From Thermodesulfobacteriota bacterium (GTDB lineage Bacteria; Desulfobacterota; Desulfobacteria; Desulfobacterales; UBA11574), in NCBI GenBank assembly GCA_042573625.1, contig JBHPCZ010000001.1:12859-76858 (forward strand): 64,000 nucleotides of DNA. The letters run 5' to 3'. The translations under genes were made by a program, and so were the position numbers. The notes under the pieces were generated by a model that worked only from the letters and a program-made list of their open reading frames with translations, ran no database searches and was not told the origin of the DNA. This document shows, piece after piece, positions 40,648-48,485 of the stretch (position 1 is the first letter of the stretch; the number at the start of each line of letters is the position of its first letter).

Positions 40648-40902
40648 ATGACAGAATTAGATTTAAACACGGTTGAAGTCTCAAGTACTGTTGATGCCAG
40701 AGGGAGTGCCTGTCCCGGTCCGCTTCTGGAAGCCAAAAAGGGTATCGGAAAGGTTAAAGTGGGAGAAATTCTTGAAATCCTTACAGGTGACTCCGGTACC
40801 CGAAAAGACATGCCGGTCTGGGCCCAAAAAGTGGGGCACGAATATCTGGGTCTTATCGAAGCGGACGGATATGATAAAATATTCATCCGGAGAAAAAAGT
40901 AA
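40648..40902 (+). CDS. tusA: TusA/SirA-family sulfurtransferase
   Basis: 84 aa from the ATG at 40648 (SD GAGGAGG). Active-site motif DARGSACPGPLL (CPxP). Confidence 0.8.
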   Translation: MTELDLNTVEVSSTVDARGSACPGPLLEAKKGIGKVKVGEILEILTGDSGTRKDMPVWAQKVGHEYLGLIEADGYDKIFIRRKK

Positions 40903-40913
40903 TCGGAGAACCG

Positions 40914-41339
40914 ATGTCATCGCCATCCATTGAAGGAAAAATACTGATAATGGCTACGGAAACATGCGCTTATCCCGGAGCGGATTCCGTAGGGCAGGCC
41001 CATTCGAGCTATCCGGCGAATACCTTTATTCTCAGGGTACGATCCCCCGTGATGTTCCCGGAACAGTTCTATCTCGACTGTTTTGAAAAGGGGATCAGCG
41101 GCATTATCATCATGTCCTGCGGCGATGAGTGCCCGTACGAAGGCGCATATGAGGCGTTGGCAAAAAGGATTGATCGCGTTTATCAGATGATGAAAAAGCG
41201 GGCCCTGGATATCCGGCGGCTCCGTTTGACCGCAATATGTACGGTGTGCAACCGGGCCTTTCTCAACGAGGTGAATCAGATGAACGCCGTGGTCAACGAG
41301 CTGGGACCGCCGTTACCGGTTGAAGCTCATAGTGCGTAG
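40914..41339 (+). CDS. MvhD/FlpD-like (methyl-viologen-reducing hydrogenase delta subunit family) protein
   Basis: Pattern KILIMATETCAYPGADSVG...ILRVRSPVMF...FEKGISGIIIMSCGDECPYEG parallels MvhD. Some canonical Cys residues are substituted. Confidence 0.6.
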   Translation: MSSPSIEGKILIMATETCAYPGADSVGQAHSSYPANTFILRVRSPVMFPEQFYLDCFEKGISGIIIMSCGDECPYEGAYEALAKRIDRVYQMMKKRALDIRRLRLTAICTVCNRAFLNEVNQMNAVVNELGPPLPVEAHSA

Positions 41340-41526
41340 CTGACCCGCATTTCTCATGAAGAATTTATTTTGTTCTTCAAAACAACGACAAACCGCTTCG
41401 AAATAAAAAGCGTATATAAAACTCGATCGACTAATTTCAAAAACACTCTATTTTAATGAACATCTTTTTAAATAAATTCTTCACCAGAGGCCTGGCCGCT
41501 ATGAATTCATCAATCCGGAGGAATTA

Positions 41527-42834
41527 ATGGAATCGAGCAATAAAATGAAATTTGACGCCCTTGTTGTCGGTGCCGGTATTGCGGGGCTTCAGGCCGCTCT
41601 TGACCTTGCGGATCAGGATTGTCGAGTGGCAATCTTGGAAAAAGACGCATCCATCGGCGGTAAAATGATCAAGCTTTCCAAGGTGTTTCCTACCCTTGAC
41701 TGCTCCAGTTGTATTACAACGCCGAAAATGGCAGCCGCGGCGCATCATGAGAATATCGAACTATTCACGTACTGCGATTTAAAATCACTGGATCGTTCTG
41801 ACGATGTCCTGACAGCATGCGCTATCCAGCGTCCCAGGTACGTGGATCCGGTTAAATGCATCGGGTGTCGAAAATGTGAATACATCTGCCCGATTTATGT
41901 TCCGGATGAAGTGGAAGGGGGATTTTCCGCCCGCAAGTCGATTTACATTCCTTTTTCAAATGCGATTCCGCAGATTGCTTTACTGGATGTTGAAAACTGT
42001 ATACTTTGCGGCAAATGTGAAAGAATCTGCCCCACTCAAGCAGTTGATTTTTATCAACAACCCGAAAATTTTATTATTAAAGCAAAAACCGCGATTCTTG
42101 CCACCGGTTTCGAAGTGACGCCGATTGAAGACAAACAGCAGTACGGCAGAGGCGAAATCCCGAACGTTATTACCGCTCTTCAAATGGAAAGACTTCTGGC
42201 GCCTCACGGCCCGTACAACCGGGTACTCCGGCCCTCGGACGGGATGGAGCCGGATTCCATCGCCTATGTGCAGTGCGCCGGTTCGCGGGATAAAAGCATG
42301 GGGATTTCCTATTGTTCCCGGGTTTGCTGCATGTATGCCATCAAGCAGGCCATGCTTCTGTCGGGTTCTTTACCGCTGGCCGATATTACCATCTATTATA
42401 TGGATATCCGGGCTTTTGGAAAAGGGTACGAACAGTTCTATCAAAACGCCAAAGCCATGGGCATAGAATTTGTCAAAGGAAAGGTGGCTACGATCGACGC
42501 CGGTGAAAACAATAGCGTGACATTACGCTACGAATCCCAATCCGGCGAGGGTGTCACCACAGCGGATTATGATCTTGTGGTGCTGTCACTGGGCATGATT
42601 CCAGGCTGGAATCCGGAGAATGTCTGTCCGGTATCAACGGATAAGGACACCTTTTTAAAATCCGTCCAGCCAAAGATCGCCCCGACACTGACCGATATGG
42701 AAGGTATTTTCATGGCCGGTGCTGCCGCCGGTCCCAAGGACATCGTGGATTCGATTGCTGAAGCCGGCGCGGCGGCCATGGAAGCAGCCAAATACCTTGC
42801 TGCGTTGGATCGACAGAAAAGCGCGGCGGCGTAA
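41527..42834 (+). CDS. HdrA-like FAD-dependent oxidoreductase, short form with 2x[4Fe-4S] insert
   Basis: FAD dinucleotide fold ALVVGAGIAGLQAALDLA, CIGCRKCEYICP, CILCGKCERICP, and the HdrA signature YVQCAGSRD....YCSRVCCMYAIK. Confidence 0.8.
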   Translation: MESSNKMKFDALVVGAGIAGLQAALDLADQDCRVAILEKDASIGGKMIKLSKVFPTLDCSSCITTPKMAAAAHHENIELFTYCDLKSLDRSDDVLTACAIQRPRYVDPVKCIGCRKCEYICPIYVPDEVEGGFSARKSIYIPFSNAIPQIALLDVENCILCGKCERICPTQAVDFYQQPENFIIKAKTAILATGFEVTPIEDKQQYGRGEIPNVITALQMERLLAPHGPYNRVLRPSDGMEPDSIAYVQCAGSRDKSMGISYCSRVCCMYAIKQAMLLSGSLPLADITIYYMDIRAFGKGYEQFYQNAKAMGIEFVKGKVATIDAGENNSVTLRYESQSGEGVTTADYDLVVLSLGMIPGWNPENVCPVSTDKDTFLKSVQPKIAPTLTDMEGIFMAGAAAGPKDIVDSIAEAGAAAMEAAKYLAALDRQKSAAA

Positions 42835-43133
42835 CCCGGAAATTTCATGCAACTGAGGCGTTCATTTGCAAGGCATTCAGGGATGCAGCTTTAGTATGTC
42901 TACCGCAAGTCCCTGATAACGCGGCAAATGGACGCCTCGGGCAGCACCCTGAGGGCGAAAATTTTTCAGCAAAAAGGATAAAAATCTATGGGTACAAACC
43001 GTACCCTGGCAATTGCATTCCAAATTGTTTTTAACTATCCTATTTTATTATAATAATTAATTCTTCTGGAATATTTTCGTGAAATATTCGGGTTAAACCA
43101 ACAGTGATAATCAAAATAGACTGGACATAGGTC

Positions 43134-47216: not shown

Positions 47217-47307
47217 TTCTCCAACTAAATTGGAGAAGAACCAAAAAGGTTAACCATAGTGCAGTTCTGTAATTATCGCTAATTCAAACAAGGAAAGGAG
47301 ACGAAGC

Positions 47308-47682
47308 ATGAGCGAAAAACAAGAAAAAACTCTCTACATCGGTACGTGTGCAGGTGAAGACCCTGAAAGAGCATCCATGCCCTTTGTCATGGCCAATGCC
47401 GCGCTGGCCATGGATATTCAGGCCACCATCGTGTTGCAGGGCCACGGTGTTTATCTTGCCCAAAAAGGTTACGTTGACAATGTACTCCCCGGAGGGGGAT
47501 TCCCACCGATAAGCAAATTGGTTGCCGAATTCCTGGAACTCGGCGGACAGTTGAGGGTCTGCGTACCCTGTATCAAAGAGCGGAATATTCCTGAATCCGA
47601 TCTGGTTGAAGGTGCGGAAACCACGGCTGCCGGCGCTGTCAATGCCGCAGCACTCGAAGCCGACGCGGTTTTTGTGTATTAA
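47308..47682 (+). CDS. DsrE/DsrF-like family sulfur-relay protein
   Basis: 124 aa. The pattern KTLYIGTCAGEDPERASMPFVMANAALAMD...LRVCVPCIKERNI is typical of the DsrE-like fold. Confidence 0.75.
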   Translation: MSEKQEKTLYIGTCAGEDPERASMPFVMANAALAMDIQATIVLQGHGVYLAQKGYVDNVLPGGGFPPISKLVAEFLELGGQLRVCVPCIKERNIPESDLVEGAETTAAGAVNAAALEADAVFVY

Positions 47683-47824
47683 ATCCGATTGGCGATCGGT
47701 TTTTGGAATGGAAACAAAAGGTCACACTGTTTTATACTATACTCAAGTTTCGGAGGTTTTGCAGAGAGATAATAAGATATCTCTCTGTGATCCTCTGAGG
47801 ATCAAACGTTAGCGAAAGATTCGT

Positions 47825-48067
47825 ATGCAAATCGCAGCCTCTATCAAAGAGTTGAATCTTATCGGTGTTGTCTCGCCGGTATGTATGCTCAAATGTAAAA
47901 GCGAGCTGGCGAGAATGAACGCCGGGGATGTGCTGGAGGTTTTGCTCCAGGATCCCGAGGCCGTTGAAGAACTTGTCAAAATTATCGAACGCTCCAAAGA
48001 TCGGGTAATCTCAAAAGAACACGAAGAAGATCATTATCGGATTCGTGTAAGAAAAGGAAAATCATAA
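47825..48067 (+). CDS. TusA-like (SirA family) protein with a non-canonical active-site motif
   Basis: 80 aa with a TusA-like pattern, but SPVCML stands in place of CPxP. GDVLEVLLQDPEAVEEL. Confidence 0.6.
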   Translation: MQIAASIKELNLIGVVSPVCMLKCKSELARMNAGDVLEVLLQDPEAVEELVKIIERSKDRVISKEHEEDHYRIRVRKGKS

Positions 48068-48077
48068 ATAGAAAGAA

Positions 48078-48485
48078 ATGGAATCCTCTTATACTTGTAT
48101 GAAACATAATATTACCGTTTCCGATGAGCATAACCAATGCCGTGATCCTGAGATTTACTGCAAGTTCCGATCTTCGTGTCCGATATGGTTTATCGACAAG
48201 AGGGGCGGCGAATCGATTGACAAGGATGACGCTGAACAAGAATTAAAACCAAATACGACGGACCACTGTTATCAGGAAAAGGAAAACGACATGCCGAACA
48301 ATGTATATGAATGTGAGAAATGTAACCATTCTTTCGAGAAACTTGTTTTTCAAGTAGACGATGAGCCTGTTGATTGCCCCAAGTGCGGAAACAGCCAATT
48401 GAAAAGGTTAAAATGCGCTGAAAGTTTTATGAGCAGCTCAAGTATCGGCGCCTGCAGTATCAATGCGCCCAAAGGTTTTTCCTGA
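48078..48485 (+). CDS. FmdB-family CxxC-CxxC zinc-ribbon protein with a Cys-rich N-terminal extension (may be two genes; internal ATG at 48291)
   Basis: The C-terminal half MPNNVYECEKCNHSFE...VDCPKCGNSQLKRL is the FmdB regulatory zinc ribbon. The N-terminal 70 aa carry CMKH...CRDPEIYCKFRSSCPIWF. Confidence 0.6.
   Translation: MESSYTCMKHNITVSDEHNQCRDPEIYCKFRSSCPIWFIDKRGGESIDKDDAEQELKPNTTDHCYQEKENDMPNNVYECEKCNHSFEKLVFQVDDEPVDCPKCGNSQLKRLKCAESFMSSSSIGACSINAPKGFS

Follow-up and report, generated by a model that had tools for sequence, protein, structure and literature searches.

A gene cluster conserved in sulfate-reducing bacteria joins TusA and DsrE sulfur carriers to a complementary pair of HdrA paralogs, MvhD and a single-site CCG protein

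Several electron-transfer systems built around HdrA-type proteins have been described. The HdrABC-MvhAGD complex of methanogens (5odc, 8rvu, 7bkb) contains a homodimer of a four-domain HdrA, and its HdrB subunit has two CCG motifs for two non-cubane clusters. The Qmo complex contains an unequal HdrA pair, a short QmoA and a long QmoB, and its QmoC subunit includes an HdrE-like membrane haem-b domain. We took the domain description of Qmo from a published paper, where the features listed for QmoA do not include an inserted ferredoxin domain; QmoAB-HdrBC variants and a "type II" QmoAB nearer to HdrA are mentioned in the literature, and a QmoAB-HdrCB form was reported for Gram-positive sulfate reducers. 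The sHdr systems combine an sHdrA of about 350 residues with C1B1 and C2B2 subunits (type I) or with B3-EtfAB-EMO (type II), the DsrK/HdrD-type disulfide (trisulfide) reductases with a single CCG site and FlxABCD-HdrABC act on DsrC, and MetFV-HdrABC-MvhD is a known complex of Moorella thermoacetica. Here we analysed a 64-kb stretch of DNA (the window) from contig JBHPCZ010000001.1, part of a metagenome-assembled genome labelled Thermodesulfobacteriota, in which ten plus-strand open reading frames (ORFs) that include tusA, mvhD, two hdrA genes, hdrC-like, CCG-protein and dsrE genes fill positions 40648-48485 (Table 1). The gene content and coordinates given in an earlier note on this DNA were borne out by the ORF list and by the Pfam and NCBIfam profile searches used for family calls. 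The cluster is real and has wide conservation among sulfate reducers, but seems not to have been studied; full-text literature searches found no paper describing this gene set, and mention in genome-context figures is possible. As the earlier note had suggested, it is a distinct module in which TusA and DsrE accompany HdrA, MvhD and HdrC/CCG proteins, and it differs from the sHdr, methanogen Hdr/Mvh and Flx-Hdr systems.

The complementary domain split between the two HdrA paralogs is the sequence-level insight most worth reporting. The paralogs are 26% identical to each other and were aligned residue by residue with HdrA of the solved HdrABC-MvhAGD complex (5odc_A). The short paralog matches 8rvu_a with 385 bits and 5odc_A with 371 bits, the latter over residues 146-566; it comprises the FAD/thioredoxin-reductase-like core, a PTLDCSSC motif, the inserted 2x[4Fe-4S] ferredoxin domain and a CxGSRD...YCSxxCC motif, and is without the N-terminal and C-terminal domains. 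The long paralog aligns to residues 4-238 and 318-638 and comprises the N-terminal cluster domain, the FAD core, a CxGSR...YCSxxCC motif and the C-terminal ferredoxin domain. Residues 239-317, which correspond to the inserted ferredoxin domain, are missing from it, and it has no DCxxC motif, reading PTGDKAAD where HdrA has PTNDCSIC. The same division was found among the orthologs: any Cys in the DCxxC-equivalent stretch occurred in two of 68 long orthologs, whereas the DCxxC Cys were present in 62 of 63 short ones, and distant variants of the cluster obey the same complementary rule. In the short paralog C59/C62, the eight ferredoxin Cys and C250/263/267/268 are kept in 62-63 of 63 orthologs, and in the long paralog the N-terminal C22/24/57/82 and C353/375/379/380 are conserved. 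Both paralogs have GxGxxG and the four cluster-site Cys, and these Cys do not vary among orthologs. In most Desulfobacterales, the C-terminal ferredoxin domain has only three Cys in its first motif, the fourth position being taken by Thr, Ser or His.

In the HdrABC-MvhAGD structure published in 2017, the second Cys of the DCxxC motif (selenocysteine in some species) is reported to serve as a ligand to the cluster in the N-terminal domain of the other HdrA. In agreement with this, an X stands at the equivalent position in PDB chain 9sfi_A. Judged from sequence, the complementary domain losses imply that the long and short HdrA form an obligate asymmetric heterodimer with a Qmo-like layout, in which the DCxxC motif of the short paralog would complete the N-terminal cluster of the long paralog across the dimer interface. 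The short HdrA had been noted earlier as an extra paralog; the alignments to 5odc_A show it to be not extra and make it the obligatory complement of the long one. The presence of one MvhD, one HdrC and one CCG gene per HdrA pair fits an asymmetric, single-path complex. Jointly the pair keeps all elements that a bifurcating HdrA needs. Two FAD sites and the cluster on the way to HdrC are present, as are the N-terminal cluster domain, the inserted ferredoxin domain and, facing MvhD, the C-terminal ferredoxin domain. The complex may be viewed as a one-sided version of the symmetric methanogen enzyme with one MvhD entry and two exits. Such a split is a natural experiment in which a symmetric enzyme has been cut to a single electron path, and a single-path HdrA could make it easier to dissect the mechanism of bifurcation and the logic of Qmo.

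Methanogen HdrABC-MvhAGD provides the best sequence matches for both HdrA paralogs, and the likeness extends to the FAD core, the cluster motifs, MvhD, an HdrC-type ferredoxin and a terminal subunit with the CCG fold. The cluster differs from it in that two complementary paralogs replace the HdrA homodimer, the terminal subunit has one CCG motif instead of two, the HdrC-like protein is half-length, hydrogenase genes are absent, and sulfur carriers replace the CoM/CoB chemistry. The likeness to Qmo lies in the unequal HdrA pair, which is similar in architecture only, in the MvhD module, and in the HdrC-like 2x[4Fe-4S] protein, which matches the N-terminus of QmoC (75 bits against a cut-off of 300, covering positions 4-94 of the 360-position model). 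In contrast to Qmo, MvhD is encoded by a separate gene, the short paralog has the inserted ferredoxin domain, the CCG protein takes the place of the membrane haem-b domain of QmoC, and tusA, dsrE and hyp are attached; no aprBA adjoins the cluster or occurs elsewhere in the window, where AprB was seen only as a weak ferredoxin-domain match in NCBIfam. With DsrK/HdrD and FlxABCD-HdrABC, the cluster shares the proposed action of a ferredoxin-like domain and one CCG site on a carrier with two Cys. It differs from these systems in being soluble, in having the two parts encoded by two genes, in its connection to HdrA instead of a membrane quinol or NADH module, and in its proposed carrier, which is DsrE/TusA rather than DsrC; no nearby dsrC was found, and a crude motif scan for a DsrC-type tail was negative throughout the window. 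By analogy, the system would work most like a soluble Qmo/Hdr hybrid for sulfur bound to carrier proteins, and its closest logic would be that of DsrK and Flx-Hdr acting on DsrC.

The conservation of the cluster was assessed in 80 loci that contain a relative of the CCG protein, obtained by a scan of one genome per species, and all window proteins were compared with these loci by tblastn. The eight-gene core tusA-mvhD-hdrA(short)-hdrA(long)-hyp-hdrC-CCG-dsrE was complete and colinear in 43 of the 50 loci with enough flanking sequence, which places the cluster beyond chance. The hosts belong to Desulfobacterales, Desulfosarcina, Desulfococcaceae, Desulfatiglandaceae, Desulfatirhabdiaceae, Syntrophobacteraceae and Desulfobulbus-type metagenome-assembled genomes (MAGs), and cultured hosts include Desulfosarcina variabilis (locus L045) and Desulfoferrobacter suflitae (L068). 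In a full-library search the CCG-protein family comprised 97 clusters (50% identity) at E <= 1e-30 and is sizeable but not huge. A variant of the cluster was found in Ignavibacteria and Zixibacteria (L077-L080) with the order tusA-mvhD-X-hdrA-hyp-hdrC-CCG-dsrE, where X is a 929-residue HdrL-type protein at the position of the short HdrA. X has the HdrA core, and where the inserted ferredoxin domain would be it carries a GltD/NfnB-like NAD(P)H module (Fer4_20 and Pyr_redox_2); this position is therefore a port for exchange with a soluble electron carrier. The CCG protein of the variant is just 34-35% identical, yet hyp, tusA, mvhD and dsrE are still attached.

A Cys-rich protein of 233 residues, here called c0, is encoded directly 3' of dsrE in 50 loci (for example, L045:10427-11128). 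It has the motifs CYARGCPxNLCPH and ERCLACYP and matched no Pfam family and no solved structure. The c0 gene has been lost from the window and from its closest relative (L010), and the arrangement dsrE-tusA'-zinc ribbon without c0 is common only to these two loci.

Among the individual subunits, MvhD is best matched in NCBIfam by the C-terminal MvhD domain of Methanosarcina HdrA2, and its six Cys are kept in 55-60 of 60 orthologs. The best NCBIfam matches of the HdrC-like protein are the N-terminus of QmoC (6e-21) and then HdrC (4e-14); all eight of its Cys are invariant in 79 of 79 orthologs. The hyp protein is Cys-free, and in an AlphaFold2 model with a predicted local distance difference test score (pLDDT) of 82 it starts with a helix of 46 residues, continues with a winged-helix domain and ends in an acidic tail. 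A fold search with hyp gave only generic winged-helix matches (E > 5e-3), from which no function follows. The gene lies between hdrA and hdrC in 56 loci, and a 79-residue homolog occurs in the Ignavibacteria variant (hhalign 97%, E 1e-10). Because its position persists into that variant, hyp probably serves as an adaptor or structural subunit, and a role as a dispensable regulator is less likely.

The CCG protein carries cluster ligands in its C-terminal half only (C213-X34-C248C249-X33-C283-XX-C286), and these five Cys are invariant in 81 of 81 orthologs. No HdrB family model and no solved HdrB was matched by sequence. The AlphaFold2 model (pLDDT 89) has two CCG-fold halves, of which the N-terminal half is without ligands, and Foldseek matched it to Mycobacterium smegmatis EtfD (9ojn, TM-score 0.69), then to LutA and then to HdrB (5odc_B, TM-score 0.52); there is also weak similarity to TmcB in NCBIfam. 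The label HdrB used in the earlier note is therefore too liberal, as only the C-terminal CCG motif is detected. The nearest full-length relatives outside the cluster include HdrC-CCG fusions of about 410 residues in Thermoplasmatota that are 31-37% identical. An assignment of the CCG protein to sHdrB3 was considered and rejected, as these fused relatives adjoin GlcD-type FAD dehydrogenases and are hence GlcF-like partners. The protein belongs to a broad CCG clade, and it is the neighbouring genes, rather than family membership, that suggest the role in S-S bond reduction proposed below.

The two sulfur carriers have strictly conserved Cys residues. The catalytic Cys22 of TusA is invariant in all 60 orthologs, as is C85-V-P-C88 of DsrE in all 63. 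The nearest solved protein to DsrE is the archaeal 3mc3, with a conserved Cys that aligns with C85; a paper on sHdr sulfur transferases lists 3mc3 among the crystal structures of DsrE3A. We regard the protein as DsrE3-like by sequence and leave its subgroup (3A, 3B or 3C) unassigned. Its CxxC motif could hold a persulfide, disulfide or trisulfide.

The sequence TGGCACGATTGTTGCG upstream of tusA has one mismatch to the sigma-54 consensus TGGCAC-N5-TTGCW, with an exact GG-N10-GC core, and lies 54 nt before the start codon. In 39 of 59 related loci, the 400 nt before tusA contain a match to TGGYAY-N5-YTGC. The divergent activator gene encodes PAS, AAA+ sigma-54 interaction and Fis-type helix-turn-helix domains, and its ortholog lies divergently upstream in most related loci. 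In the PAS domain (residues 54-87), C54, C59, C62 and C74 are kept in 49 of 49 orthologs and C87 in 46 of 49. We take the spacing C59-x2-C62-x11-C74 to resemble that in the oxygen sensor NreB, whose PAS domain binds an Fe-S cluster. In the variant loci L078 and L080, a two-Cys ArsR-type regulator is found upstream instead of the sigma-54 activator.

From the gene content, the domain and ligand complementarity and the conservation computed here, we infer complex formation, electron donor, direction of electron flow, substrate and bifurcation along the following lines. The long and short HdrA, MvhD, hyp, the HdrC-like protein and the CCG protein would form a soluble, Qmo-like complex that is expressed from the sigma-54 promoter under control of the Cys-rich PAS activator. 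Electrons would enter via MvhD onto the long HdrA, whose C-terminal ferredoxin domain and N-terminal cluster domain would form the entry, and pass to flavin; candidate donors to MvhD, encoded elsewhere in the genome or in relatives, are hydrogenase, formate dehydrogenase, MetFV and NAD(P)H. Both HdrA paralogs retain FAD and the cluster toward HdrC. The inserted ferredoxin domain of the short HdrA would be the low-potential exit to ferredoxin, and the second exit would lead through the small HdrC-like ferredoxin to the CCG protein with its single presumed non-cubane cluster site, where an S-S bond on a DsrE or TusA carrier would be reduced. Candidate substrates are a TusA/DsrE persulfide or polysulfide, a thiosulfonate, and a di- or trisulfide across the DsrE CxxC, and sulfide, alone or together with sulfite, would be formed. 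In short, the cluster may encode a TusA/DsrE-fed reductase for protein-bound sulfane sulfur or for a di- or trisulfide of the DsrE CxxC, possibly electron-bifurcating, which is the reading that we prefer and to which we assign a probability of roughly 0.45.

Coupled reduction of ferredoxin by flavin-based electron bifurcation is possible because all three HdrA branches are present exactly once, and we consider it plausible. It is doubtful that sulfate reducers have here a flavin-based bifurcation of a new class, with a TusA/DsrE3-bound persulfide, trisulfide or thiosulfonate, reduced at a single non-cubane cluster, as the high-potential acceptor of an obligate HdrA heterodimer with one entry and two exits. 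If they did, Desulfosarcina-type bacteria would gain a cytoplasmic route from zero-valent sulfur or thiosulfate to reduced ferredoxin. The hosts are complete oxidisers of the Desulfosarcina/Desulfococcus type, which dominate sulfate reduction in marine sediments, and little has been learnt about what happens in their cytoplasm to low-potential electrons, thiosulfate and zero-valent sulfur. The operon is a concrete candidate for these functions and is experimentally accessible, as the complex could be purified from a cultured organism.

Several points weigh against reduction of carrier-bound sulfur. The electron donor of MvhD is not encoded in the window, the remainder of which contains housekeeping and miscellaneous genes, with no further sulfur or hydrogenase genes found. 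The direction of electron flow is the weakest point of the proposal, and our own estimate from textbook potentials suggests that the persulfide/sulfide couple is probably too low for bifurcation from NADH-level donors. The predicted heterodimer leans on the partner-ligating role reported for the DCxxC Cys. By sequence and fold, the closest kin of the CCG protein (GlcF/LdhH-type models, LutA, EtfD) are not known disulfide reductases; its GlcF-like partner relatives make it less certain that reduction of a disulfide is the task of the CCG site, and the cluster at this site could be a plain electron relay. Co-transcription is not assured because the window has long spacers (187-402 nt). Finally, metV and metF after the cluster in 16-17 related loci point to a link with C1 metabolism rather than with the respiration of sulfur compounds.

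The last of these points belongs to a different explanation, in which the cluster would be an electron sink or loop of central carbon metabolism, with DsrE (through its CxxC) and TusA acting as thiol/disulfide carriers, as DsrC does for FlxABCD-HdrABC, and coupled to MetFV, NAD(P)H or ferredoxin. The metV and metF genes closely follow c0 in 16-17 Desulfobacterales loci, among them that of D. variabilis, and the spacers measure about 40 nt (in L045:11171-12900, metV has the methylenetetrahydrofolate reductase (MTHFR) C-terminal domain at 109 bits and metF matches MTHFR at 112 bits), and this adjacency hints at a link to the methyl branch of the Wood-Ljungdahl pathway. The Moorella MetFV-HdrABC-MvhD complex, which likewise combines HdrA, MvhD and HdrC/B-type proteins with MetVF, is a precedent, and the NAD(P)H module fused into the short HdrA of Ignavibacteria and Zixibacteria and the invariant CxxC of DsrE agree with such a role. 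However, metV and metF were found nowhere in the 64-kb window and are absent from most loci; the cluster also differs from the Moorella complex in its two HdrA paralogs, its sulfur carriers and its single-motif CCG protein, where a two-motif HdrB would be expected of a Moorella-type complex. The DsrE3-type Cys and the catalytic Cys of TusA, moreover, typify proteins that transfer sulfane sulfur. We judge a carbon loop to be rather unlikely. Another role, in housekeeping or protection, would be to remove excess reactive sulfane sulfur or to free sulfide from carrier persulfides for thiolation of cofactors or tRNA, with no energy conservation. Genes for peroxiredoxin, thioredoxin, CoA-disulfide-reductase-like and rhodanese proteins occur near the cluster in several loci, TusA serves biosynthetic sulfur relays as well, and the regulator upstream of variant loci is of the ArsR type, a family in which persulfide sensors are known. 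A six-subunit flavin and iron-sulfur machine of bifurcation-type architecture seems heavy for detoxification, however, the neighbours differ between loci, and the Cys-rich PAS domain of the activator presumably has more in common with an Fe-S redox sensor such as NreB than with a persulfide sensor, which makes this role improbable.

The opposite direction of electron flow would make the cluster an oxidative analogue of sHdr, in which sulfane sulfur on TusA/DsrE is oxidised and electrons go to ferredoxin or MvhD during oxidation of sulfide or sulfur or during disproportionation. A TusA, a DsrE3 and an Hdr-like set are typical of sHdr clusters, and the likeness includes the linkage of tusA to a dsrE3-type gene, a small "hyp" gene after hdrA, and a type II sHdrB3 that also binds one non-cubane cluster; a recent paper, moreover, proposes a hidden oxidative capacity in sulfate reducers. 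The resemblance to sHdr pointed out in the earlier note is nonetheless superficial. Both HdrA paralogs are of the methanogen type (371-407 bits against methanogen HdrA, 99-126 bits against sHdrA of Hyphomicrobium, 6tjr) and carry extra Fe-S domains, which sHdrA lacks. One HdrC-like and one CCG gene were found, in agreement with the single HdrC/CCG pair of the earlier note, whereas sHdr systems have two pairs or B3-EtfAB-EMO; neither another HdrCB pair nor an HdrB with two clusters is present, and no etfAB or emo was found in the window or in annotated relatives. LbpA always accompanies sHdr; here, as also noted earlier, no lipoate-binding protein was detected by a crude regular-expression scan of the window for a GcvH/LbpA-type lipoyl-lysine motif, nor was a lipoate-binding domain found in the Pfam-annotated 10 kb on either side of three related loci. 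The single CCG site has no obvious route to sulfite. By its sequence features the cluster is not an sHdr system, and because of the methanogen-type HdrAs, the single CCG site and the failure to find LbpA, sHdr-like oxidation is disfavoured and its probability is low. That the genes are merely neighbours by chance, independent and without joint function, might be argued from the spacers of the window (187, 299, 237 and 402 nt, one with an inserted pseudogene fragment). But over 40 species keep the order, which extends to other phyla, and outside the window the spacers are short; no plus-strand terminator-like site was detected by a consensus scan in the spacers 5' of dsrE, and this explanation is close to refuted by synteny.

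The spacers of the window are unusually long. Those at 41340-41526, 42835-43133 and 45060-45296 (187, 299 and 237 nt) compare with ortholog medians of 79, 42 and 63 nt, and the hdrB-dsrE spacer (402 nt) compares with a median of 71 nt; over all spacers of the related loci the medians range from 1 to 79 nt. The first three are AT-rich and may contain promoters or the remains of insertions. We considered structured RNAs and elements common to the long spacers and rejected both, as no Rfam match was found at E <= 0.1 and the four spacers do not align with one another. The sole identifiable insertion among the four is in the hdrB-dsrE spacer, where inverted repeats of 34 nt (46980-47013 and 47182-47215) enclose a decayed piece of a four-helix-bundle 23S_rRNA_IVP gene that is interrupted by an in-frame stop. 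The element has no second match within the window, and the fragment is an insertion that lies outside the system. Of the two hairpins listed in Table 1, the weak one 3' of dsrE is a possible end of the core transcript, and the strong one is predicted to close the transcription unit.

Downstream of dsrE, tusA' encodes a TusA-fold protein that has Ser at the position of the catalytic Cys (GVVSPVCML) and a Cys three residues on; alignments to TM0983 and to the TusA of the cluster thus confirmed the SPVCML in place of CPxP reported earlier. Relatives have a comparable TusA-like ORF, mostly Cys-less, either between the promoter and tusA, where Pfam recognises some of them, or after dsrE-c0. TusA' is a conserved, mostly Cys-less partner that in most relatives is encoded elsewhere than at its position in the window. 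The zinc ribbon, which had been counted as a member of the cluster, is not conserved beside it and lies outside the conserved unit; the only match in related loci (L013) is 39% identical, upstream and on the opposite strand. The zinc-ribbon domain occupies residues 72-119 of the 135-residue ORF, that is, the last 64 codons (48291-48485). The first 71 codons (48078-48290) gave no match, and a 64-residue version scores 6.5e-12. The gene probably starts at the internal ATG at 48291, and the annotated start is probably too far upstream. The MvhD-like protein named in the earlier note is present as well (FlpD, E 1.9e-20).

Table 1. Predicted features of the tusA-dsrE cluster and its immediate surroundings (window coordinates)
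Feature	Position	Strand	Evidence
Sigma-54-dependent activator, divergent	39031..40416	-	Pfam Sigma54_activat 5e-70, PAS_9 1.4e-13, HTH_8
Predicted sigma-54 (-24/-12) promoter, TGGCACGATTGTTGCG	40579..40594	+	Consensus match
tusA, 84 aa, CPGP motif	40648..40902	+	Pfam TusA 1.9e-19
mvhD, 141 aa, [2Fe-2S]-type electron-transfer adaptor (FlpD family)	40914..41339	+	Pfam FlpD 1.9e-20
hdrA-short, 435 aa	41527..42834	+	470 bits against HdrA2 model
hdrA-long, 641 aa	43134..45059	+	494 bits against HdrA2 model
hyp, 118 aa	45297..45653	+	Weak winged-helix matches only
hdrC-like 2x[4Fe-4S] ferredoxin, 101 aa	45672..45977	+	Fer4_8 1e-10
CCG-domain protein ("HdrB-like"), 308 aa	45979..46905	+	Pfam CCG, residues 207-291
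Decayed 23S_rRNA_IVP gene fragment	47036..47191	+	Pfam 59.6 bits, conceptual translation
dsrE, DsrE3-like, 124 aa	47308..47682	+	Pfam DsrE 4.8e-16
Weak terminator-like hairpin just 3' of dsrE	47685..47699	+	Consensus scan
tusA', TusA-fold paralog, 80 aa	47825..48067	+	Pfam TusA 1.8e-15
FmdB-type zinc-ribbon ORF, 135 aa	48078..48485	+	Zn_ribbon_8 7e-11, residues 72-111
Strong intrinsic-terminator-like hairpin, 8 pairs (6 G-C), then T run	48500..48518	+	

The neighbourhoods of some related loci contain further genes. A second, different Hdr-like set adjoins the cluster at L006:10486-14657 and also in L001, L003 and L008; it encodes a 432-residue HdrA, a 532-residue protein in which the C-terminal half of HdrA is fused to MvhD, and an HdrD/DsrK/TmcB-like protein in two parts (235 and 145 residues). 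Peroxiredoxin genes near the cluster are split or truncated in L084:13949-14668 and L001:13543-14001 (PrxU, 278 bits), which probably reflects an in-frame UGA selenocysteine codon rather than pseudogenes. In L034 (the MAG "chromosome" CP070843.1), a CooS-type carbon monoxide dehydrogenase precedes hyp-hdrC-hdrB-dsrE. This enzyme was rejected as the electron donor, as a 100-N scaffold gap lies between them; such gaps flank the cluster (L034:8182-8281), and both the adjacency and the apparent absence of tusA-mvhD-hdrA from this locus are probably assembly artefacts.

The window also contains an hgcA-hgcB mercury-methylation pair on the plus strand at 36919-38470, about 2.2 kb upstream of the cluster; the tblastn comparison found no such adjacency in the related loci. 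HgcA (400 residues, with the cap-helix motif NVWCAAGK) scored 445 bits against a cut-off of 275, and HgcB (96 residues, with CC at its end) scored 118 bits against a cut-off of 99.

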